A stretch of 64,000 bases of DNA, from contig DASSEW010000007.1 of the NCBI GenBank assembly GCA_035695065.1, positions 8,525 through 72,524 of the forward strand, written 5' to 3'. The notes below the pieces were generated by a model that was given only the letters and a program-made list of their open reading frames with translations, had not been told where the DNA came from and did no database searches. Of the stretch, positions 1,161 to 40,476 are shown in pieces. The stretch's first letter is position 1. Each line of letters starts with the position of its first letter. A program made the translations under genes and the position numbers. This DNA comes from Rhodanobacteraceae bacterium. Its GTDB lineage: Bacteria; Pseudomonadota; Gammaproteobacteria; Xanthomonadales; Rhodanobacteraceae.

Positions 1161-1173
1161 CGTCAATGCTGTT

Positions 1174-1286
1174 CCCTTCCACCGCTTGCGGGGGAAGGTG
1201 CCGAAGGCGGATGGGGGAAATACTCGCGATATTTTCGCACGGTTCCCCTCACCCCAATCCCCTCTCCCGCAAGCGGGAGAGGGGTT
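1174..1286. repeat. bipartite GC-rich palindromic repeat element, intergenic copy
   Basis: Layout: CCTTCCACCGCTTGCGGGGGAAGG hairpin + GTGCCGAAGGCGGATGGGGG, then a spacer, then CCCCTCACCCCAATCCCCTCTCCCGC-AA-GCGGGAGAGGGG hairpin. Same module order (reverse orientation) and about 80 percent similar by eye to the copies at 14517-14647 and 15874-15980. Confidence 0.7.
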
Positions 1287-1288
1287 CA

Positions 1289-1576
1289 TCACAACGTATA
1301 CCGGATATCGGGATCGGCCCGCAGCGCGGCGTGCGCGGCTTCGTACTTTTCGCGCGAGGGGCAGGTGAAACCCGCGGTGACCGAAACGTAATTGCCTTCG
1401 CGCGACGGCCGCTCGCGCAGGCTGGCGTCCAGCACGCTCAGGCCGAGGCCGCGCAGGATTTCCGGCACGCGCTCGCGCAGGTTGGCGCCCGCATTGCCCA
1501 TCGCGGTGATTTCGAAGCTGCCGGGAAACTGGAAGCCCTGGCCCTCTTGGGGCGTGATGTTGTCTAGATCGCGCAT
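1289..1576 (-). CDS. ybeD: YbeD/DUF493 family protein
   Basis: ORF 1289..1582. [27 protein letters not shown]...[12 protein letters not shown] matches the YbeD size and pattern, in the conserved position between dacC and lipB. ATG at 1576 preferred over the TTG at 1582. Confidence 0.85.
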
Positions 1577-1635
1577 GGACAATAAATCGTGGCGCTCACC
1601 CGGGATTTAAAGGCGGGCGCCACTGCGGAAGCAAT

Positions 1636-11005: not shown

Positions 11006-11065
11006 TTAAAAAAGCCTTGTTGCATGCGGGTTCCGGCGGGGTCGTGATGGTGGTCACGCAAACAA

Positions 11066-11150
11066 TCCCTTCCCCCGCTTGCAAGAGCGCCATCCATGGC
11101 CGAGAGCTCCGTGGTGCCCGTAGGGCGGATGGGGGGAATACTTGCGAAAT
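11066..11150. repeat. degenerate partial copy of the bipartite repeat
   Basis: ATCCCTTCCCCCGCTTGCAAGAGCGCC ... GGTGCCCGTAGGGCGGATGGGGGGAATACTTGCGAAATCGC parallels 1176-1240 (GGTGCCGAAGGCGGATGGGGGAAATACTCGCGATATTTTCGC). Confidence 0.4.
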
Positions 11151-11194: not shown

Positions 11195-12133
11195 ATGCCT
11201 GCTGCCCTGATCTGCGGCTCGATGGCTTACGACACCATCATGGTGTTCGGCGACCGCTTCAAGAACCACATCCTGCCGGACAAGGTGCACATGTTGAACG
11301 TGTCGTTCCTGGTCCCGCAGATGCGCCGGGAATTCGGCGGCTGCGCCGGCAACATCGCCTACAACCTCAAGCTGCTCGGCGGCGATCCCTTGCCGCTGGC
11401 CACCGTCGGGCAGGACTTCGATCCCTACCGCAAGCACCTCGCCGCCTGCGGCATCCGCATGGACGGCCTGCGCGAGCTGCCGGACACCTTTACCGCGCAG
11501 GCGTTCATCACCACCGACCTCGACGACAACCAGATCACCGCCTTCCATCCGGGCGCAATGATGCGCAGCCACGAGAACCACGTGCGCGACATCGCCGATA
11601 TCGCCTTCGGCATCGTCGCCCCGGACGGGCGCGACGGGATGTTGCAGCACGCGCGCGATTTCGCCGAACGCGGCGTGCCTTTCATCTTCGATCCCGGCCA
11701 GGCGATGCCGCTGTTCGACGGCGAGGAATTCCGCGCCTTCATCGAGCAGGCCGATTACGTCACCGTCAACAGCTACGAAGCGAGCCTGCTGCAGGAACGC
11801 ACCGGCTGGTCGGAAGCCGAGATCGCGCAGCGCGTGAAGGCCTATATCGTGACGCACGGCGGCGAAGGCTCGGCGATACACACACGCGACGAGGTTTTCG
11901 AGATTCCAACGGCAACGCCGCGCGCCGTCACCGATCCGACCGGCTGCGGCGACGCCTATCGCGCAGGACTGATTTTCGGCTTGATGAAAAATTGCGATCT
12001 GCCGACCGCAGGCCGCATGGCCTCACTGATGGGCGCGCTGAAAATCGCGCATCCCGGCACGCAGAACCAGCGGTTCACGTACGCGGAATTCGCGGAGGAA
12101 TTCCGCAAGCAGTTCGGGTATTCGCTGGCCTAA
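11195..12133 (+). CDS. PfkB-family carbohydrate/nucleoside kinase
   Basis: ORF 11096..12133; start ATG 11195 (MPAALICGSMAYD). GGCAGNIAYNL near the N-terminus and DPTGCGDAYRAGLIFG near the C-terminus are the PfkB signatures. Confidence 0.85.
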   Translation: MPAALICGSMAYDTIMVFGDRFKNHILPDKVHMLNVSFLVPQMRREFGGCAGNIAYNLKLLGGDPLPLATVGQDFDPYRKHLAACGIRMDGLRELPDTFTAQAFITTDLDDNQITAFHPGAMMRSHENHVRDIADIAFGIVAPDGRDGMLQHARDFAERGVPFIFDPGQAMPLFDGEEFRAFIEQADYVTVNSYEASLLQERTGWSEAEIAQRVKAYIVTHGGEGSAIHTRDEVFEIPTATPRAVTDPTGCGDAYRAGLIFGLMKNCDLPTAGRMASLMGALKIAHPGTQNQRFTYAEFAEEFRKQFGYSLA

Positions 12134-12186
12134 ATCTCCCTTCTCCCGCTTGCGGGAGAAGGTGCCCGAAGGGCGGATGAGGGTGT
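12134..12186. repeat. half copy of the bipartite repeat
   Basis: ATCTCCCTTCTCCCGCTTGCGGGAGAAGGTGCCCGAAGGGCGGATGAGGGTG: hairpin TTCTCCCGC-TT-GCGGGAGAA plus the GTGCC.GAAGG.CGGATG.GGG tail shared with the 1176-1215 module. Confidence 0.45.
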
Positions 12187-12500
12187 CGCGCACAAAGTGC
12201 GCGGCTTTCGTATTTGCTAGTACGACATCCATGTCTTTTTTCCGCGCCGTCCCACGGCGCGGGTTACTTTCCTTTCGGGAAAGTAACCAAAGCCACGGCG
12301 CCGGCATGACGGTCTCGCCAACGTCCGGTTGGCTCGACTCCCCTGCGCTTCTCGCCGGGCGCGCGCCGGCGCGAACTCGCACATCCTTGTGCTCAGACAG
12401 TCGCGCCTTTCCCGCGCGCCCGGCTGCGATGCTCGGCGTCATGCGACGGCGCCGGAGCTCACTTCGACACGGCCATCCATGGCCTGCAATGGTTTGCATC
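12187..12500. repeat. structured non-coding region (probable family-specific intergenic repeat)
   Basis: About 310 nt without a credible ORF. Contains the perfect 11-bp hairpin GGTTACTTTCC-tttcg-GGAAAGTAACC (12262-12288) and several GC-rich dyads (CGCGCCGTCCCACGGCGCG, GCGCGCGCCGGCGCG). Only one copy in the window, so repeat status is an inference. Confidence 0.3.
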
Positions 12501-12552
12501 CCCCGCCTGATACTGCTTGCGATAATATCGAAAGCGTCGAGGGGAGACTCTT

Positions 12553-13059
12553 ATGCAAACCTTCTTTATAGCTCTGGCCACAGTCATAGGACCCATTGCC
12601 GCAGTCGTAATTACGCGCCTCATGGATGATCGCAAAGCACGAGAGATGAGGCGCTACTCTGTGTTCTCTACCCTCATGGCTCTGCGCGGGCTAAGCATCC
12701 ATGCTGAGCATGTGCGCGCACTCAATTTGGTCCAGTTAGAGTTCGCAAAAAACTCTCAGGTCATCAATTCATGGCGGAATTTCGTTAACCATGTGGAGAC
12801 CGATGCAACTGTAGACCCGACCTCTTGGAACATGAAATACCGGGATCTACTGAATCAACTGTTGGTTGATATTGCGAAAGATCTAAAAATTCAAAGTAAC
12901 GAGATCGACTTGGCGCGCGGCGGCTATTACCCAAGAGGCTGGGCATTCCAAGAAGAGCGAATTCAAGCCGCCCAAGAGTTCGTGCAGGGGCTTTCCAGCG
13001 GCACGAAAGCAGTGCCGGTCAAACTAGTTGAGGCGGGAGCAACGATCCTGACTCAGTAG
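12553..13059 (+). CDS. hypothetical protein, N-terminal TM anchor, low-GC orphan
   Basis: ORF 12553..13059, 168 aa. MQTFFIALATVIGPIAAVVITRL TM segment then a helical soluble domain. Visibly AT-richer than its flanks. RBS GAGGGGA 7 nt upstream and TAATAT -10-like hexamer at about 12524. I vaguely associate the pattern with a DUF family (possibly DUF6680) but cannot verify this. Confidence 0.7.
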   Translation: MQTFFIALATVIGPIAAVVITRLMDDRKAREMRRYSVFSTLMALRGLSIHAEHVRALNLVQLEFAKNSQVINSWRNFVNHVETDATVDPTSWNMKYRDLLNQLLVDIAKDLKIQSNEIDLARGGYYPRGWAFQEERIQAAQEFVQGLSSGTKAVPVKLVEAGATILTQ

Positions 13060-13089
13060 GCAATCGGCTCGAAATGAAGACCCGAAGAA

Positions 13090-14904
13090 TTACTTCTTCG
13101 GCACGTACAAATCCGTGATCGTGCCTTCGAACACTTCCGCCGCCATGCCGACGGATTCGGAAAGCGTCGGGTGCGGGTGGATGGTGAGGCCGATGTCGGC
13201 CGCTTCCGCGCCCATCTCGATCGCGAGCGCGATTTCGGAAATCAGGTCGCCCGCGTGCACACCGACGATGCCGCCGCCGAGCACGCGTTGCGTCGCATTG
13301 TCGAAGATCAGCTTGGTGAAGCCTTCGCTGCGATCCATGCCCAAGGCGCGGCCTGAGGCCGCCCACGGGAATTTCGCCACGCCGACGTCGAACTTCTTTT
13401 CCTTCGCCTCGCGCTCGGTCACGCCCACCCAGGCCACTTCCGGATCGGTGTAGGCCACGCTCGGGATCACGCGCGCGTCGAAGGCGCTCTTGTGGCCGGC
13501 GCAGACTTCGGCCGCCACTTTTGCTTCGTGCGTCGCCTTGTGCGCCAGCATCGGCGGGCCGACGATGTCGCCGATGGCGAAGATGTGCGGCACGTTGGTG
13601 CGCAGTTGTTTGTCGGCGGGAATGTAACCGCGCTCGGTGACATTCACGCCGGCCTTGTCCGCACCGATCTTCCTGCCGTTCGGCACGCGGCCGACCGCGC
13701 ACAGCACGCGATCGAATACCTGCGGTTTCGGCGCGTTGTCACCTTCGAATACCACTTCGATGCCGTTCTTCTGTGCTTTCGCCGAAGCCACTTTCGTCTT
13801 GAGATGGATGCCGGCGTAGCGCTTGGAAATGCGTTGTTGCAGCGGTCGCACCAGGTCGGGATCGGTACCGGGCATCAGCTGGTCGAACAATTCGACCACA
13901 GTCACTTCCGCACCGAGCGCGTCGTACACGCAGGCCATCTCCAGGCCAATGATGCCGCCGCCGATCACCAGTAGCTTCTTCGGAATTTCGCCGAGCATCA
14001 GCGCATCGGTCGAATCCATCACGCGCGGATCGCCCCACGGCAGGCCGGGCAGTTTCACTGCCTGCGAACCCGCGGCGATGATGCATTGTTCGAAACGAAC
14101 GAGCTTCCTGCCTTCGCTCGTCTCCACTTCGATCTCGTGCGGCGACACGAAGGTGCCCGTGCCGCGCACGCCGCGCACCTTGCGCTGCTTCACCATCGCG
14201 GCGAGCCCGCCGGTGAGCTTGGCGACCACGCCGTCCTTGAACGCGCGCAGCTTGTCGAGTTCGATCTTCGGCTTGCCGAACACGATGCCGTGTTCGGCCA
14301 TCAGTTCGGCATCGTTGATCAAATCGGCCGCGTGCAGCAGCGCCTTGGACGGAATGCAGCCGACGTTGAGGCACACGCCGCCGAGCCGCTCGTAGCGTTC
14401 GATCAGGATGGTGTCGAGGCCGAGATCGGCGGCGCGGAACGCGGCGGTGTAACCGCCGGGGCCGGAGCCGAGCACGCAGACCTGGCAATCGAAGTCGGGC
14501 TTGCGACCGGTGGATGGACTCCCTCCCCCGCTCGCGGGGGAGGGTTGGGGTGGGGGTGTCGCTTGCCGCGCATTTTCCGCTGCGGCGATTTTGGAACCGC
14601 CCCCCTCTGCCTTCGGCATCTCCCCCCGCTGCGCGGGGGGAGAATTCTTTTCATTGGATGATTCGGCGCCGGACTCCACCACCGCAATCACGCTGCCCTC
14701 GGAAACGTTGTCGCCTTCCTTGACGCGCAGTTCCTTGATCGTGCCCGCGGCGGAGGCCGGGACTTCCATGGTCGCTTTCGCCGATTCCAGCGTCAGCAGG
14801 CTCTGGTCCTTTTCGACCTTGTCGCCGACCTTCACCAGCACCTCGATCACCGGCACGTCGGAGAAATCGCCGATCGCGGGGACTTTCAGTTCGATCGTGG
14901 CCAT
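13090..14904 (-). CDS. lpdA: dihydrolipoyl dehydrogenase (E3) with N-terminal lipoyl domain
   Basis: ORF 13090..14985; ATG 14904 (MATIELKVPAIGDF). Lipoyl domain (LESAKATMEVPA), GSGPGGYTAAF FAD fold, redox disulfide CLNVGCIPSK and C-terminal HPHPTLSE. Confidence 0.95.
   Translation of the reverse strand: MATIELKVPAIGDFSDVPVIEVLVKVGDKVEKDQSLLTLESAKATMEVPASAAGTIKELRVKEGDNVSEGSVIAVVESGAESSNEKNSPPAQRGEMPKAEGGGSKIAAAENARQATPPPQPSPASGGGSPSTGRKPDFDCQVCVLGSGPGGYTAAFRAADLGLDTILIERYERLGGVCLNVGCIPSKALLHAADLINDAELMAEHGIVFGKPKIELDKLRAFKDGVVAKLTGGLAAMVKQRKVRGVRGTGTFVSPHEIEVETSEGRKLVRFEQCIIAAGSQAVKLPGLPWGDPRVMDSTDALMLGEIPKKLLVIGGGIIGLEMACVYDALGAEVTVVELFDQLMPGTDPDLVRPLQQRISKRYAGIHLKTKVASAKAQKNGIEVVFEGDNAPKPQVFDRVLCAVGRVPNGRKIGADKAGVNVTERGYIPADKQLRTNVPHIFAIGDIVGPPMLAHKATHEAKVAAEVCAGHKSAFDARVIPSVAYTDPEVAWVGVTEREAKEKKFDVGVAKFPWAASGRALGMDRSEGFTKLIFDNATQRVLGGGIVGVHAGDLISEIALAIEMGAEAADIGLTIHPHPTLSESVGMAAEVFEGTITDLYVPKK
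14517..14647. repeat. bipartite palindromic repeat, in-frame inside the lpdA linker
   Basis: Module L: GACTCCCTCCCCCGCTCGCGGGGGAGGGTTGGGGTGGGGG. A 42-nt spacer follows. Module R: CCCCCCTCTGCCTTCGGCATCTCCCCCCGCTGCGCGGGGGGAGAATTC. Translated on the minus strand as PPAQRGEMPKAEGG...TPPPQPSPASGGGS. Confidence 0.75.
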
Positions 14905-14908
14905 CGCG

Positions 14909-16276
14909 TTACACCAGCAGCCGGCGCAGGTCGCCGAGCACGCGTGACAGATACGCGGCGAAGCGCGCGGCATCGGCGCCATCAATCACGCGATGGTCAT
15001 AGGACAGCGACAGGGGCAGCATCAGCCGCGGCTCGAACGCGCTGCCGTTCCACACCGGCTGCATGCTTGAGCGCGACACGCCCAGGATCGCCACTTCCGG
15101 CGCGTTGATGATCGGCGTGAACGACGTGCCGCCGATGCCGCCCAGCGAAGAAATCGAGAAGCAGCCGCCGGACATGTCATTGGGCGAGAGCTTCCTGTCG
15201 CGCGCCTTCTTCGAGATCTCGCCGAGTTCGCTCGCCAATTCCAGCAGGCCCTTGCGATCGGCGTCGCGGATCACGGGCACGACAAGGCCATCGAGCGTGT
15301 CCACGGCGATCCCGATGTGGAAATATTTTTTCAGCACGAGTTTTTCGCCGGAAGCATCCAGCGAAGCATTGAACTGCGGGTACTGCTTCAGCGCCGCGAC
15401 CGCCGCCTTGATCAGGAACACCAGCGGCGTGATCTTCACTTCCTTGTTTTCCGCACCGAGCTGCTTGCGGAACGCTTCCATGTCGGTGATGTCGGCGGAT
15501 TCGTGCTGGGTGACGTGCGGGATCATCGCCCAGTTGCGCGCGAGGTTGGCGCCGGAAAGTTTCTTGATGCGCGAGAGCGGCTTCTCCTCGATCGCGCCGA
15601 ATTTCGAAAAATCCACCTGCGGCCAGGGCAGCAGATTGAGTCCGCCACCGCCCGATGCCACGTGCGAGGTCGCGCCGCCGGCGAGCGCCGACTTCACGAA
15701 CGCCTGCACGTCCTCTTTCGTGATGCGACCACCGCGCGCCGAACCGTGCACGCGCGCGATGTCCACGCCCAGCTCGCGCGCGAACGCGCGCACCGCGGGA
15801 CTGGCGTAGGGCACCTTGTCCGGCGCCACCGTGTCGGCGTCGAAGGGAACCGGCGGCGAGCGCGGGGCCTCCTGACTCCCTCCCCCGCTCGCGGGGGAGG
15901 GTCGGGGTGGGGGCGATGATTGCGATGAACTGCCCCCCTCCGCCTTCGGCACCTCCCCCCGCTGCGCGGGGGGAGGATTCACAGCTGGAGCCGCTGCGGA
16001 AGCAGAAGCTTTCGACGCAGCGGGTGAAGCAGCACCATCGCTCTCGATCACCGCGATCACGCTGCCGCGCGAAACGGTGTCGTTCTCCCTCACCTTGACT
16101 TCGCGCACCGTGCCGGCGAAAGGCGCGGGCACTTCCATCGTGGCCTTGGCCGACTCCAGCGTGACCAGCCCCTGGTCCTTCTCGACCCGGTCGCCGGGTT
16201 TCACCAGCACTTCGATCACCGGCACGTCGGTAAAATCGCCGATGTCCGGTACGGTGGCTTCTCGCGTGTCGGTCAT
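14909..16276 (-). CDS. aceF: dihydrolipoamide acetyltransferase (E2 of pyruvate dehydrogenase), single lipoyl domain
   Basis: ORF 14909..16327; ATG 16276 (MTDTREATVPDIGDF). Lipoyl LESAKATMEVPA, PSBD ASPAVRAFARELGVD, catalytic LSLSYDHRVIDGA. Confidence 0.95.
   Translation of the reverse strand: MTDTREATVPDIGDFTDVPVIEVLVKPGDRVEKDQGLVTLESAKATMEVPAPFAGTVREVKVRENDTVSRGSVIAVIESDGAASPAASKASASAAAPAVNPPPAQRGEVPKAEGGSSSQSSPPPRPSPASGGGSQEAPRSPPVPFDADTVAPDKVPYASPAVRAFARELGVDIARVHGSARGGRITKEDVQAFVKSALAGGATSHVASGGGGLNLLPWPQVDFSKFGAIEEKPLSRIKKLSGANLARNWAMIPHVTQHESADITDMEAFRKQLGAENKEVKITPLVFLIKAAVAALKQYPQFNASLDASGEKLVLKKYFHIGIAVDTLDGLVVPVIRDADRKGLLELASELGEISKKARDRKLSPNDMSGGCFSISSLGGIGGTSFTPIINAPEVAILGVSRSSMQPVWNGSAFEPRLMLPLSLSYDHRVIDGADAARFAAYLSRVLGDLRRLLV
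15874..15980. repeat. bipartite palindromic repeat, in-frame inside the aceF lipoyl-PSBD linker
   Basis: Module L is identical to the lpdA copy except for 1 nt (GGGTCGGGG). Module R differs at 3 nt. The spacer is shorter. Translated as PPAQRGEVPKAEGG...PPPRPSPASGGGS. Confidence 0.75.
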
Positions 16277-16343
16277 GCTCGTCCCTTGGCTCGATGCAGC
16301 AGGCGCAGACCGCAGAGTTTCGCGCATTCGCGCAGCCGCGTCA

Positions 16344-35049: not shown

Positions 35050-37929
35050 TCACACCGTCAGCGGATTCGGCTTCTCCGGATCGAGCTTCCACTGCTTGAT
35101 CGCGCGGGCGACGTCCTGCGGGTTCATCGCGCCTTCCGCGGCGAGCGCGCTGATCGCGGCGTGCGCGATCCAGTAGCGGTCCACCTCGAAGAAGCTGCGC
35201 AGGTGCTCGCGCGTATCGGAGCGGCCGTAGCCGTCGGTGCCGAGCACGACGTAACGCTTGCCCTGCGGCATGAACGCGCGGATCTGGTCAGCGTATTCAC
35301 GCACGTAATCGGTCGCGGCGATCGCCGGACCGTCATGTTGCGACAGACACTGCGCCACGTACGGCACGCGCGGGTCCTTCGTTTCCGGATGCAGGCGGTT
35401 CCAGCGTTCGCAGTCGAAGCCGTCGCGGCGCAATTCCGAGAAGCTCGGGCACGACCACACGTCCGCGACCACGCCGAATTCCTGTTCCAGCAATTCCGCC
35501 GCAGCGATGCATTCGCGCAGGATCGTACCCGAACCCAGCAATTGCACGCGCGGGGCTTTGCTCTTGCTCTTGCGCTTTTCCGATTCCCGATTCCCGATTC
35601 CCGATTCCCGGCTCTTGCTCACTACCGCCTTCGCACTCGCTTTCGTTTCGCGCGGATGCGGGCCATCGGTTTCCGGCACGCGGCTCTCGCCCTGCTTGTC
35701 GGGCGAAGCCTGCGGCGTGGGCGAACCCGAAGGGATCGGATTATCGCCGTCGCGGAACAGGTACATGCCGCGCACGATGCCCTCCTCGCAGCCTTCCGGC
35801 ATGTCCGGATGCACGTAGTTCTCGTTCATCACGGTGACGTAGTAATACACGTCTTCCTGCTCGTGCAGCATGCGGCGGATGCCGTCCTGCAGGATCACCG
35901 CGACTTCGTACGAGAACGTCGGATCGTAGGCGCGGCAGTTCGGGATCGCGCCGGCCATCAGGTGCGAGGAACCGTCCTCGTGCTGCAGGCCTTCACCGTT
36001 CAGCGTGGTGCGTCCGGAAGTGCCGCCGATCAGGAAACCGCGCGCGCGCGAATCGCCCGCGGCCCAGGCGAGGTCGCCCACGCGCTGGAAGCCGAACATC
36101 GAGTAGTAGATGAAGAACGGCAGCATCGGCAGGTCGGAAACCGAATAGCTGGTGCTGGCCGCGATCCACGCCGAGATGCCGCCGGCCTCGCTGATGCCTT
36201 CCTGCAGCACCTGGCCGTTCTCGGCCTCGCGGTAGTACAGCAACTGGTCGGCATCCTGCGGCCGATATTTCTGGCCTTCGGGCGTGTAGATGCCGATCTG
36301 CCGGAACATGCCTTCCATGCCGAAGGTGCGCGCCTCATCGGCGACGATCGGCACCACGCGCGGGCCGATCTGCTTGTCGCGCAGCAGCAGGTTCATGCCG
36401 CGCACCAAGGCCATGGTCGTTGAAATCTCGCGGTCGCCGGTGCCCTTGGTAATGGCGTCGAACGCTTTCAGGTCCGGCGCGGGCAGCGGGTTGCTGGCCT
36501 TGCGCCGGCGATGCGGCAGGTAGCCGCCCAGCGCCTTGCGGCGCTCGTGCATGTATTCCACTTCCGGCGAATCCTTGCCGGGGTGGTAATACGGCACCGA
36601 CTCGATCTCCTCGCCTTCCAGCTTCGAATCGGGAATCGGGATGTTGAAGCGATCGCGGAACACGCGGATCGCATCGTGGTGCATCTTCTTGGCCTGGTGC
36701 GCGATGTTCTGCGACTCGCCGGCCGTGCCCATGCCGTAACCCTTGACCGTCTTGGCGAGGATCACCGTGGGCATGCCTTGCGTGTGCACCGCCGCGTGAT
36801 AGGCCGCGTACACCTTGTGCGGATCGTGGCCGCCGCGATTGAGGCGCCACACGTCGTCGTCGGAGAGGTTCGCGACCATCGCCGCGGTTTCGGGATATTT
36901 CCCGAAGAAGTTGTCACGCGTGTACTTGCCGCCGAACGCCTTGCAAGCCTGGTATTCGCCGTCCACGGTTTCCATCATCAGCTTGCGCAACACGCCCTTG
37001 CTGTCGCGCGCGAGAAGCGGATCCCAGTACGAACCCCATATCAATTTCAAAACGTTCCAGTCGGCGCCGCGGAACACGCCTTCGAGTTCCTGGATGATCT
37101 TGCCGTTGCCACGCACGGGCCCATCGAGGCGCTGCAGGTTGCAGTTGATCACGAAGATCAGGTTGTCGAGTCCTTCGCGGCCGGCGAGCGCGATCGCGCC
37201 CAGCGACTCGGGCTCGTCGCATTCGCCGTCGCCCATGAAGCACCAGACCTTGCGATCGGACTTCGGCATCAGCCCGCGTGCTTCCAGGTACTTCAGGAAC
37301 TGCGCCTGATAGATCGCCTGGATCGGACCCAGGCCCATCGAAACCGTCGGCGTCTGCCAGTAGTCGGGCATCAGCCACGGATGCGGATACGACGACAGAC
37401 CGTGCCCGCCGACTTCCATGCGGAAGTTGTCGAGACGATCCTCGTCGAAGCGGCCTTCGAGGTACGAACGCGCGTACAGGCCGGGGCTGGAGTGGCCTTG
37501 GTAAAACAACAGGTCGCCCGGATGTTCTTCCGAAGGCGCGCGCCAGAAATGGTTGAAGCCGACATCGTAAAGCGTGGCCGAGGAACCGAAGCTCGCGATG
37601 TGGCCGCCGAGCTCGCCCGGCCGGCGGTTCGCGCGCACCACCATCGCCATCGCGTTCCAGCGGATGATCGAGCGGATGCGCCACTCCATCGCCGCGTCGC
37701 CGGGCGATTTCGCCTCCAGGTGCGGCGGGATGGTATTGATGTATTCGGTGGTCGGCGAAAACGGCAGGTGACCACCCGCGCGGCGGGTTTCGTCCACCAT
37801 CCTTTCCAGCAACTGGTGCGCGCGATCGGTGCCCTCGGCGTTGATAACCGCATCGATGGATTCGATCCACTCGCGGGTCTCGGTGGGATCGGGATCAACG
37901 TCGAGTATTTCGCGGGTCAGGTCGTTCAT
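35050..37929 (-). CDS. aceE: pyruvate dehydrogenase E1 component (homodimeric type) with an internal low-complexity insert
   Basis: ORF 35050..37989; ATG 37929 (MNDLTREILDVDPDPTETREWIESI). ThDP motif CFMGDGECDEPESLGAI. C-terminal VQLLGSGTILRE...VLGTDGYGRSDTRE. Confidence 0.95.
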   Translation of the reverse strand: MNDLTREILDVDPDPTETREWIESIDAVINAEGTDRAHQLLERMVDETRRAGGHLPFSPTTEYINTIPPHLEAKSPGDAAMEWRIRSIIRWNAMAMVVRANRRPGELGGHIASFGSSATLYDVGFNHFWRAPSEEHPGDLLFYQGHSSPGLYARSYLEGRFDEDRLDNFRMEVGGHGLSSYPHPWLMPDYWQTPTVSMGLGPIQAIYQAQFLKYLEARGLMPKSDRKVWCFMGDGECDEPESLGAIALAGREGLDNLIFVINCNLQRLDGPVRGNGKIIQELEGVFRGADWNVLKLIWGSYWDPLLARDSKGVLRKLMMETVDGEYQACKAFGGKYTRDNFFGKYPETAAMVANLSDDDVWRLNRGGHDPHKVYAAYHAAVHTQGMPTVILAKTVKGYGMGTAGESQNIAHQAKKMHHDAIRVFRDRFNIPIPDSKLEGEEIESVPYYHPGKDSPEVEYMHERRKALGGYLPHRRRKASNPLPAPDLKAFDAITKGTGDREISTTMALVRGMNLLLRDKQIGPRVVPIVADEARTFGMEGMFRQIGIYTPEGQKYRPQDADQLLYYREAENGQVLQEGISEAGGISAWIAASTSYSVSDLPMLPFFIYYSMFGFQRVGDLAWAAGDSRARGFLIGGTSGRTTLNGEGLQHEDGSSHLMAGAIPNCRAYDPTFSYEVAVILQDGIRRMLHEQEDVYYYVTVMNENYVHPDMPEGCEEGIVRGMYLFRDGDNPIPSGSPTPQASPDKQGESRVPETDGPHPRETKASAKAVVSKSRESGIGNRESEKRKSKSKAPRVQLLGSGTILRECIAAAELLEQEFGVVADVWSCPSFSELRRDGFDCERWNRLHPETKDPRVPYVAQCLSQHDGPAIAATDYVREYADQIRAFMPQGKRYVVLGTDGYGRSDTREHLRSFFEVDRYWIAHAAISALAAEGAMNPQDVARAIKQWKLDPEKPNPLTV
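35558..35745. repeat. repeat-like low-complexity segment translated in-frame within aceE, including 4 x CGATTCC (35581-35608)
   Basis: GCTCTTGCTCTTGCGCTTTTC(CGATTCC)x4CGGCTCTTGCTC...; encodes ...AVVSKSRESGIGNRESEKRKSKSK. The motif is shared with the intergenic element at 62270-62380 (CTCGATTCCCGACTTTCGG, CAAGAGCCG). Confidence 0.55.
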
Positions 37930-37950
37930 AAGTAAATCCTGGAGCTTGCT

Positions 37951-38001
37951 GTAGGGCGGGCATCGCCCGCCAAGGTTTGCGGCGGACAATGTCCGCCCTA
38001 C
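37951..38001. repeat. REP pair of the GTAGGGCGG type
   Basis: GTAGGGCGGGCATCGCCCGCC (37951-37971) and GGCGGACAATGTCCGCCCTAC (37981-38001), inverted, in the aceE/maeB spacer. Same family as 8171-8239. Confidence 0.6.
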
Positions 38002-38007
38002 ATTGAT

Positions 38008-40353
38008 TCATTCGCGACGCATGCGTTCCGCATCATTCGCGTTTGCCTGCGCACGATCATTTCTATTTAAATTCGCGCCTTCGGCGCGAATTTGCGCCTC
38101 CACGCACGCGATTGCGCTCATGTTCACCACGCGGCGCACGGTCGCCTGCGGGGTGAGCACGTGCGCGGGTTTCCCCACGCCCATCAGGATCGGGCCGATC
38201 ACCACGCCATCGCACATCACCCGGCTCATGTTGAAGGCCGTGTTGGCCGCTGCGAGGTTCGGGAACACGAACATGTTGGCGCGGCCTTTCAGGCGCGAAT
38301 TCGGGAACACGCGCATCCGCAGTTCGGGATTCAGCGCCAGATCCGCCTGCATTTCGCCTTCCACTTCGAGCTTCGGCAAACGCTTGCGGATCAAGGCGAG
38401 CGCAGCCTGCAGCTTGCGCGTGACGTCGTTGTCGCGGCTGCCGAAATTGGAGGCCGCAAGCAAGGCAACCTTCGGCTCGATGCCGAACAGCTTCAGGCGC
38501 AACGACGCCTGAAGCGTCGCCTCCGCAATCTCTTCGGCGCTCGGATCGTCCTGCACGTGCGTGTCGAGATAGAAATACACGCCCGACTCGTTGGCGATCG
38601 CGGTCATGGAGGACGGCGCCTCCACTCCGCGATCCAGCCCGATCACGTCAAGGATGTAGGCGAGCTTTTTCTGATAGCGCCCGACCGTGCCGCAGATCAT
38701 CGCGTCCGCATCGCCGCGCGCCACCATCAGCGCCGCGATCACGGTCGAGCGCGAGCGCACCACCGATTTCGCCAGAGCCTGGGTGAAGCCGCGCCGCTGC
38801 ATCAGGTCGTAGTAGTGCTGCCAGTAATCGTCGAAGCGCGGGTCGGAGTGGATGTTGCACAGTTCAAAATCGCGGCCTGCTTCCAGACGCAGGCCGACGC
38901 GCTCGATGCGGCGCGCAATGACCTCCGGTCGGCCGATCAGGATCGGCCGCGCGAGCTTCTCGTCCACCACCGTCTGCACCGCGCGCAGCACGGTTTCCTC
39001 TTCGCCTTCCGCATACACCACGCGCTGCGGGTTGGCCTTCGCGCGCTCGAACACCGGCTTCATCACCAGGCCCGTGCGGAACACGAACTGCATCAGCTTT
39101 TCGGTGTAGGCCGTGAGATCGTCGATCGGACGGGTAGCCACGCCCGATTCCATCGCCGCCTTCGCCACCGCCGGCGCGAGCTGCACCAGCAGGCGCGGAT
39201 CGAACGGCTGCGGGATCAGGTACTCCGATCCGAAATGCGGCGGCTTGCCACCGTAGGCGCGCGCGGCAACGTCGGAACCTTCGCGTCTTGCGAGTTCCGC
39301 GATCGCGTGCACGCAGGCGACCTTCATCGCCTCGTTGATCGTGGTCGCACCGACGTCCAGCGCGCCGCGGAAGATGTAAGGGAAGCAGAGCGCGTTGTTG
39401 ACCTGGTTGGGGAAGTCCGAGCGGCCGGTGGCGATCACGCAATCCGGGCGCAGGCGCAGCGCGATGTCCGGCATGATCTCCGGTTCCGGATTGGCGAGCG
39501 CCAGGATGATCGGCTTTTTCGCCATGCTCGCCAGCAGTTCCGGCTTCAGCACGCCGGCGGCGGAGAGGCCCAGGAACACGTCCGCGCCCTGCACGATTTC
39601 TGCGAGCGAGCGCGCCTTGGTGTCGCGCGCATAACGCGCGCGATCGGCGTCCATGCCGGCGCGACCGGTGTAGAGCACGCCTTCGCGATCGATCGCGAGA
39701 ATGTTTTCCGGCTTCACGCCCAGCGCGACCAGCATGTCGAGGCATGCGATGCCCGCTGCGCCCGCGCCTGCATGCGCGATCCGCACGTCTTCGATGTTCT
39801 TGCCGACCACGCGCAGCGCGTTGATCAGCGCCGCACCGACGATGATCGCGGTGCCGTGCTGGTCGTCGTGGAAAACCGGGATCTTCATCCGCTCGCGCAA
39901 TTTGCGTTCGACGATGAAGCATTCCGGCGCCTTGATGTCTTCGAGATTGATGCCGCCGAAGGTCGGCTCCAGCGCGGCGATGATGTCCACCAACTTGTCC
40001 GGGTCCTTCTGCGCGACCTCGATGTCGAAGACATCGATGCCGGCGAACTTGCGGAACAGCACGCCCTTGCCTTCCATCACCGGCTTGCCGGCGAGCGGGC
40101 CGATGTCGCCGAGGCCCAGCACGGCGGTGCCGTTGGTGATCACCGCGACCAGGTTGCCGCGCGCGGTGAGTTCGGAAGCCTGCTGCGGATCCTCGACGAT
40201 CGCCTCGCACGCGGCGGCCACGCCGGGCGAATACGCCAGCGACAGTTCGCGCGCATTCAACAGCGACTTGGTGGGAGTGACGCGGATCTTTCCGGCCGGC
40301 GCATGGCGGTGGTATTCCAGCGCGGCCTGCTTGAGTTCTTCGGGGAGACTCAT
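38008..40353 (-). CDS. maeB: NADP-dependent malic enzyme (malic enzyme + phosphate-acetyltransferase-like C-terminal domain)
   Basis: ORF 38008..40464; ATG 40353 ([23 protein letters not shown]). [43 protein letters not shown]. About 330-aa PTA-like tail. Confidence 0.95.
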
Positions 40354-40433
40354 GATGGCGTGAACGCGAGCGTGACCGCTGAATATATCACGCGGCCTGC
40401 ACGCTTCCGCGGGACAGGATCGCACCCGAAGGA

Positions 40434-40458
40434 GCGGAGCGGCATCGCGCCGCTCCGC
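40434..40458 (-). terminator. hairpin downstream of the autotransporter gene
   Basis: GCGGAGCGGC-atcgc-GCCGCTCCGC 19 nt after the stop. On the minus strand it is followed by TCCTTCGGGTG (poor U-tract). Confidence 0.4.
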
Positions 40459-40476
40459 CGGCATTGCATCAGAACA

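Follow-up and report, generated by a model that had tools for sequence, protein, structure and literature searches.

A REP/REPIN-like palindromic repeat within the reading frames of the E3 and E2 swinging-arm linkers of a Rhodanobacteraceae pyruvate dehydrogenase

The 64,000-nt stretch of Rhodanobacteraceae DNA analysed here (the window, in whose numbering all coordinates are given) encodes two neighbouring subunits of pyruvate dehydrogenase (PDH) on its minus strand, E3 (lpdA) and E2, with the E2 stop codon lying 4 nt before the lpdA start. In both genes, the linker that follows the lipoyl domain carries a copy of a palindromic repeat element built from two hairpin modules, which we call B and A, and it is this element and its place in the two reading frames that we describe. 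L and P numbers used below denote loci or proteins of relatives or from metagenomes. The features of the two genes are the following.

13090-14904, minus strand: lpdA, encoding E3, a dihydrolipoamide dehydrogenase with an N-terminal lipoyl domain, 604 amino acids (aa), assigned from the open reading frame (ORF), its translation and Pfam (Biotin_lipoyl residues 5-75, Pyr_redox_2 141-461, Pyr_redox_dim 480-588)
14909-16327, minus strand: gene of E2, dihydrolipoamide acetyltransferase (Pfam Biotin_lipoyl 25-94, E3_binding 173-208, 2-oxoacid_dh 246-471)
14517-14646 (130 nt), minus strand: in-frame two-module palindromic element (B-A doublet), E3 residues 87-129, NSPPAQRGEMPKAEGGGSKIAAAENARQATPPPQPSPASGGGS; boundaries taken from the E3/E2 alignment
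14619-14643, minus strand: 5' hairpin of the E3 copy (mRNA sense), B module, with the perfect 11-bp stem TCTCCCCCCGC-tgc-GCGGGGGGAGA, followed by UGCCGAAGGCAGAGGGGGG with a small GCC-GAA-GGC hairpin; from RNA folding
14521-14544, minus strand: 3' hairpin of the E3 copy (mRNA sense), A module, with the perfect 11-bp stem CCCTCCCCCGC-tc-GCGGGGGAGGG, preceded in the mRNA by CCCCCACCCCAA; from RNA folding
15874-15979, minus strand: second copy read in-frame, in the lipoyl-to-PSBD linker of E2 (residues 117-151, NPPPAQRGEVPKAEGGSSSQSSPPPRPSPASGGGS), with hairpins at 15952-15976 and 15878-15901; orientation and frame as in the E3 copy

An earlier note on this DNA had placed a two-hairpin element at about 14517-14647 of lpdA and had described the frame as running through it between the lipoyl and FAD domains. 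Both claims hold, as two perfect 11-bp hairpins were found whose modules match an intergenic repeat, and as the ORF is continuous with Pfam domains on either side; the peptide quoted at the time equals the translation exactly. Reading the translation from the sequence, we could confirm that the frame continues through the element with predicted domains on both sides in E3 and in E2 alike, and the Pfam boundaries place the element outside the predicted folded domains. The lpdA frame is open over 604 codons with a GC content at third codon positions (GC3) of 0.82. Within the E3 copy all six frames are free of stop codons, and the frame in use is the most linker-like of them, being rich in Pro, Ser, Gly, Ala and Glu, whereas the other frames are Arg-, Cys- or Trp-rich.

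RNA folding of the E3 segment gives the two hairpins plus the small GCC-GAA-GGC one, with -76.7 kcal/mol and z = -4.85. In the window, CCCCGC-N1-6-GCGGGG is found 4 times where 0.28 would be expected, and none of 100 shuffles reached this count. The element supplies 43 of the approximately 52 linker residues in E3 (~80 %) and 35 of approximately 58 in the first E2 linker (~60 %). With its composition of G9 A9 P9 S8 E5 among 57 residues, the element-bearing E3 linker is of the swinging-arm type, that is, of low complexity and made of Pro, Ala, Ser and Gly plus charged residues; according to the Pfam boundaries it connects the lipoyl domain to the folded domain that follows, and its length falls within the range of its orthologues. 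An internal translation start after the element, at a GGAGG-like tract, was considered and rejected, as a start codon is absent within range. On the plus strand, 14619-14653 reads as a hairpin followed by ATTCTTTTCA, a T-run, which gives an intrinsic-terminator-like score antisense to lpdA; the E2 copy is without such a tail.

When both in-frame copies are aligned, similarity begins at AAT(T/C)CTCCCC and stops at GGGAGGGAGTC. The ends of the two copies are identical at 49 of 52 and 39 of 40 positions (94-97 %), with the centre of the E2 copy being 24 nt (8 codons) shorter, while the sequences beside them are unrelated and identity between the paralogous lipoyl-domain stretches reaches only ~72 %. 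Given unrelated flanks and end identities far above that of the lipoyl-domain DNA, the two in-frame copies are either much younger than the domain duplication or are being homogenised. The same comparison (lipoyl DNA at ~72 % versus element ends at 94-97 %, with unrelated adjoining flanks) led us to reject the notion that the E3 lipoyl domain and linker are a recent duplicate of those of E2.

Altogether the window holds five copies of the repeat, two in-frame and three extragenic. The earlier note had recognised the first of the extragenic copies given below, but had missed the in-frame copy in E2.

1167-1291, plus strand: full intergenic copy (B-A doublet), flanked by the 3' end of a DUF493 gene (1289-1606, minus strand) and by the start of the next minus-strand gene, which we take to be lipB from its appearance
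12137-12183, plus strand: single B module (hairpin and GGTGCCCGAAGGGCGGATGAGGG), 4 nt past the stop codon of a pfkB-family kinase gene; over 47 nt it shares 87 % identity with the intergenic copy (E = 5e-8)
11064-11140, plus strand: degenerate B module whose left arm CCCTTCCCCCGCTTGC is separated by an interruption from GGTGCCCGTAGGGCGGATGGGGGG; it is located upstream of the likely start of the kinase gene at 11216

The full intergenic copy at 1167-1291 reads on its plus strand as the copies in lpdA and E2 do on their mRNA-sense strand. Its stems are CCTTCCACCGC/GCGGGGGAAGG and CCCCTCTCCCGC/GCGGGAGAGGGG; those credited to it in the earlier note are actually the stems of the E3 copy. Its 32-nt arms are 75 % complementary, and it may alternatively fold into a single long hairpin of -66.1 kcal/mol (z = -4.9). 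The similarity between in-frame and intergenic copies survives proper alignment: in BLAST comparisons within the window, the E3 copy matches 1176-1283 on the opposite strand at 65 % over 124 nt (E = 9e-7), and the E2 copy matches the same intergenic copy at 72 % over 111 nt (E = 1e-11). Their common architecture is a hairpin followed by TGCCGAAGGCrGAkGGGGG, a variable centre, and CCCCyCACCCCAA followed by a second hairpin. In terms of modules, B is composed of a hairpin plus TGCCGAAGGCGGATGGGGG and A of a hairpin plus TTGGGGTGAGGG, so that the intergenic copy reads B, variable centre, CCCCTCACCCCAA and hairpin (A). The unit module is accordingly a 10-11-bp hairpin pairing a C/T-rich with a G/A-rich arm across a loop of 2-5 nt, extended by a G-rich tail, with RNA folding z-scores from -2.2 to -4.9.

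The closest genomes belong to the Rhodanobacteraceae (Xanthomonadales/Lysobacterales). Across 32 aligned E3 orthologues the lipoyl and FAD domains are colinear and the linker between them differs. Element-type sequence occupies it in about 13 of the 32 (the window, L001-L005, L008-L010, L012, L016, L017 and L024), while the remaining orthologues have ordinary Ala/Pro or Lys/Glu linkers. In the E2 linker it is found in the window, L001, L002, L005 and L018 as well as in the metagenomic relatives L089, L106 and L194, with L089 carrying it in both E2 and E3. One element-free orthologue, L202 (GCA_036503375.1), shares 93 % of its amino acids in the catalytic part and has a four-fold-site identity of 0.76, and its E3 linker is unrelated; L001, at a distance equal to that of L202, and P0003, a fragment with 94 % identity, both carry the element. 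The peptide is thus not common to the orthologues, as would be expected from the insertion that the earlier note had in mind: many Rhodanobacteraceae, L202 included, have ordinary linkers between colinear flanks.

In the E3 tree, carriers fall into three clades, each with its own subtype and with common junctions, which argues for several gains and losses and not for one event. The distance from the lipoyl-Lys to the GxGxxG motif is 103 residues in the window versus 79-107 in element-free relatives, with a mean of 112 in carriers versus 96. Given the share of the linker that the element takes up at a normal lipoyl-Lys-to-GxGxxG length, the ancestral tether appears to have been largely replaced. 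L001 and L002 have a decayed 5' hairpin, and in L003 and L024 a single module is left. In the E3 linker of Rhodanobacter FW106 (L017, 5254-5440), the 5' module is broken by ~45 nt with a palindrome of its own (CTGCATGGATGCAG) and the loop of the 3' hairpin is expanded, which gives the appearance of nested insertions. A lipoyl-bearing E3 with the element in its linker recurs in isolates (Dokdonella ginsengisoli and Rhodanobacter ginsengiterrae) and in many independent assemblies.

Identical B-module nucleotides are read in three different frames depending on the host, GGDAEGRGG being one of the resulting peptides, and between orthologous copies the frame shifts inside the element and is restored further downstream (L002 E2 versus window E2; P0017 versus L089). 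Different frames, together with a decayed hairpin in sister lineages, indicate that the peptide itself is not under selection. Exaptation, as proposed in the earlier note, is therefore supported in a passive sense only: the element does supply 43 of the ~52 residues at normal linker length, but what it encodes is free of selection, as seen from the differing frames and the hairpin decay.

At the nucleotide level the picture is a different one. In a Rhodanobacter trio (L008, L012 and L016), identity amounts to 78-88 % in the modules, 47-59 % in the centre and 56-61 % at four-fold sites, the latter being saturated, and the module differences lie mostly in the loops. Across 28 in-frame hairpins the stems co-vary, with C-G, T-A, G-C and A-T found at pairs 1, 3, 4 and 6 and few mismatches. 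The E2 and E3 copies of one genome are of the same subtype in the window, L005, L089 and L002, while copies of different clades are unlike each other. Within the relatives' loci, 22 of 25 family-type hairpins are located in the two linkers and 3 in ~250 kb elsewhere, intergenic DNA included; perfect hairpins of any kind reach 0.66 per kb in the linkers versus 0.13 elsewhere.

To see the modules in a wider setting, metagenome contigs were scanned for the exact 28-nt B core, giving at least 120 records; copy counts refer to the matches listed. Among these, ~95 % of 129 B-core copies are extragenic and ~5 % truly intragenic, and the 119 classifiable copies comprise 93 apparent singlets and at least 26 doublets (at least 20 %), the latter being either inverted B-B homodimers or B-A heterodimers as in the window. 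Singlets and inverted doublets at mostly extragenic positions form the pattern of repetitive extragenic palindromes (REPs) and of REPINs, which are REP doublets. Among the matches listed, further genes that are read in-frame through the repeat and encode Pfam domains on either side of it are those of an HrpA helicase (where it falls between HA2 and the OB fold), of DnaE, of a class-I aminoacyl-tRNA synthetase and, with three linkers, of PDH E2. Long ORFs over copies in L197, L105, L154, L090, L163, L131, L145 and L087 were judged spurious or have the element upstream of the real start, and likewise those in L119, L115, L195, L111, L117, L096 and L122 are spurious or have it before the true gene start; none of them was counted as intragenic.

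Over ~40 nt the A module shares 90-95 % identity with intergenic sequences that are present in multiple copies on replicons of Azospirillum, Cupriavidus, Pantoea and Enterobacter, while matches to the B module come from Sinorhizobium and a full B-A unit from Allorhizobium, so that module sequences occur in alpha-, beta- and gamma-proteobacteria. In Escherichia coli strain A11 (L201, 1198-1245), the nrdA-nrdB spacer contains an unannotated A-type module (ACCCCTCACCCTAACCCTCTCTCCCGCAAGGGGAGAGGGGAC) that is 90 % identical to that of the window. This nrdA-nrdB module is present in 1645 of 5426 complete E. coli genomes as a single copy each, while Azospirillum and Cupriavidus have many per replicon. 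[quoted passage not shown] Rfam returned no family for the element at gathering thresholds, only chance miRNA-like matches with E of about 1, and a profile of the element-encoded peptides gave no significant match against 5.8 billion proteins, probably due to the short and low-complexity query. The module sequences and their family were not found described in the literature searched.

In-frame repeats in tolerant linkers are already known, and the present repeat is a different sequence family without their tags. Di Nocera, De Gregorio & Rocco (2013, BMC Genomics 14:522, PMC3733652) reported intragenic GTAG/CGTC REPs in DnaE/DnaE2, tRNA synthetases and RNA helicases. Their supplement lists REPs in E2 of PDH and of 2-oxoglutarate dehydrogenase (OGDH) of Opitutus terrae and in PDH E1-beta and E2 of Sphingopyxis alaskensis, with the one in S. 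alaskensis E1-beta located at residues 86-93, right after the lipoyl domain. This is a precedent for the PDH-linker setting, of which the earlier note was not aware. In the discussion of the same paper, intragenic REPs are proposed to be neutral, being situated in flexible linkers. As described for the GTAG/CGTC REPs, the repeat analysed here consists of short GC-rich palindromes, singlets as well as head-to-head dimers, that are located mainly outside genes and on their 3' side, with a minority inside ORFs, in-frame and encoding 20-40 residues. In contrast to them, it is without either tag, its stems are strictly partitioned into pyrimidines and purines, a conserved G-rich tail holding a second mini-hairpin belongs to each module, and it is present in both E2 and E3 of one operon, where it forms most of the linker. 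Unusual about the present case is that both subunits are occupied, that most of the tether is supplied by the repeat and that the modules persist.

Other known systems resemble the repeat in part. Broad REP features are all found, namely a short GC-rich stem-loop palindrome, dispersed and mostly extragenic copies, and singlets next to inverted dimers. REPINs, i.e. REP doublets mobilised by REP-associated tyrosine transposases (RAYTs; Bertels & Rainey 2011, PMC3116915), similarly consist of two inverted modules round a short spacer that fold as two hairpins or one long one, with singlets as remnants; unlike REPINs, the present repeat has no GTAG tag and no RAYT was found in the window and the loci scanned (in a search of low sensitivity), many of its doublets are B-A heterodimers, and its modules are common to several proteobacterial classes, whereas REPIN families are usually lineage-specific. 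According to the Fig. 9 text of PMC3733652, terminal inverted repeats (TIRs) flanking TIRYT tyrosine transposases have a GGGGWSAS motif, occur as singlets and dimers and are abundant in the related Stenotrophomonas maltophilia; the A-module tail GGGGTGAG fits this motif, which is a lead at motif level only, and a TIRYT gene flanked by the present modules was not seen. Bacterial MITEs such as ERIC, BOX, Nezha and Correia form in-frame fusions (PMC10969869, PMC3184786) and share with our repeat the small, non-autonomous build, the inverted ends and the occasional part in host ORFs, as well as the long perfect TIR seen in L198. The doublets are indeed units of 50-500 bp bounded by terminal inverted repeats, but most copies are single modules and not TIR-bounded units.

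A behavioural parallel is given by the Rickettsia palindromic elements (RPEs), in-frame palindromic repeats in genes (Ogata et al. 2000 Science 290:347; Ogata et al. 2002 Genome Res 12:808). RPEs are likewise palindromic repeats of ~100-150 bp that stand in-frame, without stops in the frame used, at permissive sites of functional housekeeping genes and also between genes, with a large share of RPE-1 being intragenic as compared to ~5 % of the present copies among the matches listed. The hosts differ, with a free-living Xanthomonadales member of 66 % GC on one side and AT-rich obligate intracellular alpha-proteobacteria on the other, and judging from host taxon and base composition the sequences are probably unrelated and homology is unlikely. 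The element thus behaves like an RPE without being classed as one.

Taking these findings together, we put a probability of roughly 75 % on the reading that the element is a REP/REPIN-like, non-autonomous palindromic repeat which is tolerated in the disordered swinging-arm linker and by now largely replaces it. E2 function needs the lipoyl domain to be covalently joined to the core. With no stop codons in the element and a linker that tolerates almost any length and sequence, an insertion would be read through and the enzyme would stay functional. The ancestral Ala/Pro-type linker would have been replaced by the element and not merely extended. The hairpin modules would be kept at the nucleotide and not at the peptide level, likely by gene conversion among copies, including those in E2 and E3 that are 1.3 kb apart, and/or by self-correction of the palindromes, while the centre would drift neutrally and whole elements would be gained and lost between close relatives. 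Concerted evolution is the simplest account of the module conservation. By analogy with REPINs, insertion probably proceeded on single-stranded DNA, directed by the hairpins and carried out by a tyrosine transposase of the RAYT/TIRYT type.

Several observations weigh against this tolerated-repeat reading. The GTAG or CGTC tag is absent beside the hairpins in all window copies and in the metagenome copies inspected. A motif scan and phmmer with an approximate IS200 TnpA query, a search of low sensitivity, were applied to every ORF of 90 aa or more in the window and in ~1.5 Mb of other loci, and no RAYT or IS200-like transposase was found. Neither a target-site duplication nor a parent insertion sequence was identified, nor an alignable pair of empty and filled sites, and we infer the mobility of the element from its distribution only. 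Pure tolerance is furthermore not obviously enough to account for the linker enrichment, which points to preferential insertion, longer persistence or selection; much of the excess is probably due to descent from common ancestors within clades and to a length-constrained linker being protected from deletion, and some of it may be due to preferential insertion. Finally, module conservation beyond the saturated synonymous divergence could reflect function instead of conversion.

Among the alternatives, an unlikely one is that the linkers are a preferred target, with the insertion machinery favouring GC-rich, hairpin-prone Ala/Pro-coding DNA or resident copies and with repeated insertion driving the colonisation of E2 and E3. 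The density in the linkers above that in intergenic DNA of the same loci and the different subtypes that three clades have in the same linker fit this account, as do the unrelated REP families in PDH/OGDH linkers of Opitutus and Sphingopyxis and the known role of REPs as targets of further insertions (Delihas 2011, PMC3184786), to which the nested insertion of L017 can be added. The counts are phylogenetically non-independent, however, and with clade-wide junctions no more than ~3 to 5 events are required. An equal pattern would arise if elements persisted longer in a length-constrained linker than in deletion-prone intergenic DNA, and neither an insertion-site motif nor a duplication was identified at these sites.

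We regard it as decidedly improbable that the hairpin modules are selected in Rhodanobacteraceae PDH operons as a cis-acting RNA or DNA structure in the E2 and E3 linkers and upheld by compensatory evolution. The roles that come into question are an inter-domain translational pause (hairpins and GGAGG-like tracts) that would help domains to fold or to be lipoylated, stabilisation of the mRNA, binding of a conserved factor that would coordinate E2 and E3, and a block to antisense transcription. Modules that are 78-88 % identical beside saturated synonymous sites (56-61 %) and a neutral centre would follow from such selection, but gene conversion from other copies explains both this conservation and the seemingly compensatory stem changes between orthologous in-frame copies without invoking function, and intergenic copies show equal stem maintenance, which is thus not specific to coding sequence. 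Modules stand in both E2 and E3 of at least four genomes and are strongly enriched in the linkers over the rest of the loci; many close and distant relatives are nevertheless without any element, L001 and L002 show decay of the 5' hairpin, and just half of the element is left in L003 and L024. The recurrence of the same modules in alpha-, beta- and gamma-proteobacteria, from E. coli to Sinorhizobium, is likewise in favour of a function, set against which is the lack of an Rfam family match, and the terminator-like character of the E3 5' hairpin on the antisense strand is a feature absent from the E2 copy.

That no insertion took place at all and that Pro/Gly-rich coding DNA (CCN and GGN codons) gave rise to the pattern through composition, chance palindromes or local linker duplication is effectively refuted, for although linkers are GC-rich and of low complexity and L007 has an Ala-codon palindrome unrelated to this repeat family, the non-palindromic tails (TGCCGAAGGCrGAkGGGGG and CCCCyCACCCCAA) are common to intergenic copies, to at least 120 metagenome copies and to unrelated genes, 4 motifs were observed versus 0.28 expected, and element-free orthologues exist. 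An assembly artefact, in which the E2 and E3 repeats caused a chimeric join, or an lpdA pseudogene with an accidentally open frame is hardly credible either, since, even if the window possibly stems from a metagenome-assembled genome and the exact E3 protein is without a record, lipoyl-bearing E3 with the linker element is present in isolate genomes and many independent assemblies, 604 codons are open with a GC3 of 0.82, and the flanks beside each copy are unique.

If the tolerated-repeat reading is right, the locus would represent a clean case outside Rickettsia of selfish-type repeat DNA serving as coding sequence for the swinging-arm tether of an essential enzyme, and this in two subunits at once. 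Disordered linkers would then be renewable from non-coding repeats, with the peptide free to change or to shift frame while the DNA palindromes persist. Simple tolerance would leave partly unexplained why the modules are conserved above the neutral rate and why lipoyl linkers are enriched in them. For annotation it follows that 'extragenic' repeats and odd PSPxxGEG-type peptides within PDH genes are genuine.

Some further observations concern the surroundings of the two genes. E2 and E3 are adjacent or overlapping in the window, with its gap of 4 nt, and in L001, while in L202 (2784-3953) a gene for an MscS-family channel stands between them and several other relatives have an E2-E3 gap of more than 1 kb. 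The E1 gene (aceE, 985 aa) is located ~20 kb from E2-E3 (window 35050-40476), beside a malic enzyme/phosphotransacetylase-domain fusion (38008-40476). On the other side of lpdA, the pfkB-family kinase gene is bracketed by repeat modules (11064-11140 and 12137-12183). The segment between this gene and the lpdA 3' end (12184-13089) has a GC content of 55.6 % versus ~66 % and may be an acquired insert; it contains a DUF6680 ORF (12553-13059, plus strand) and two unrelated perfect hairpins (12242-12262 and 12262-12288).

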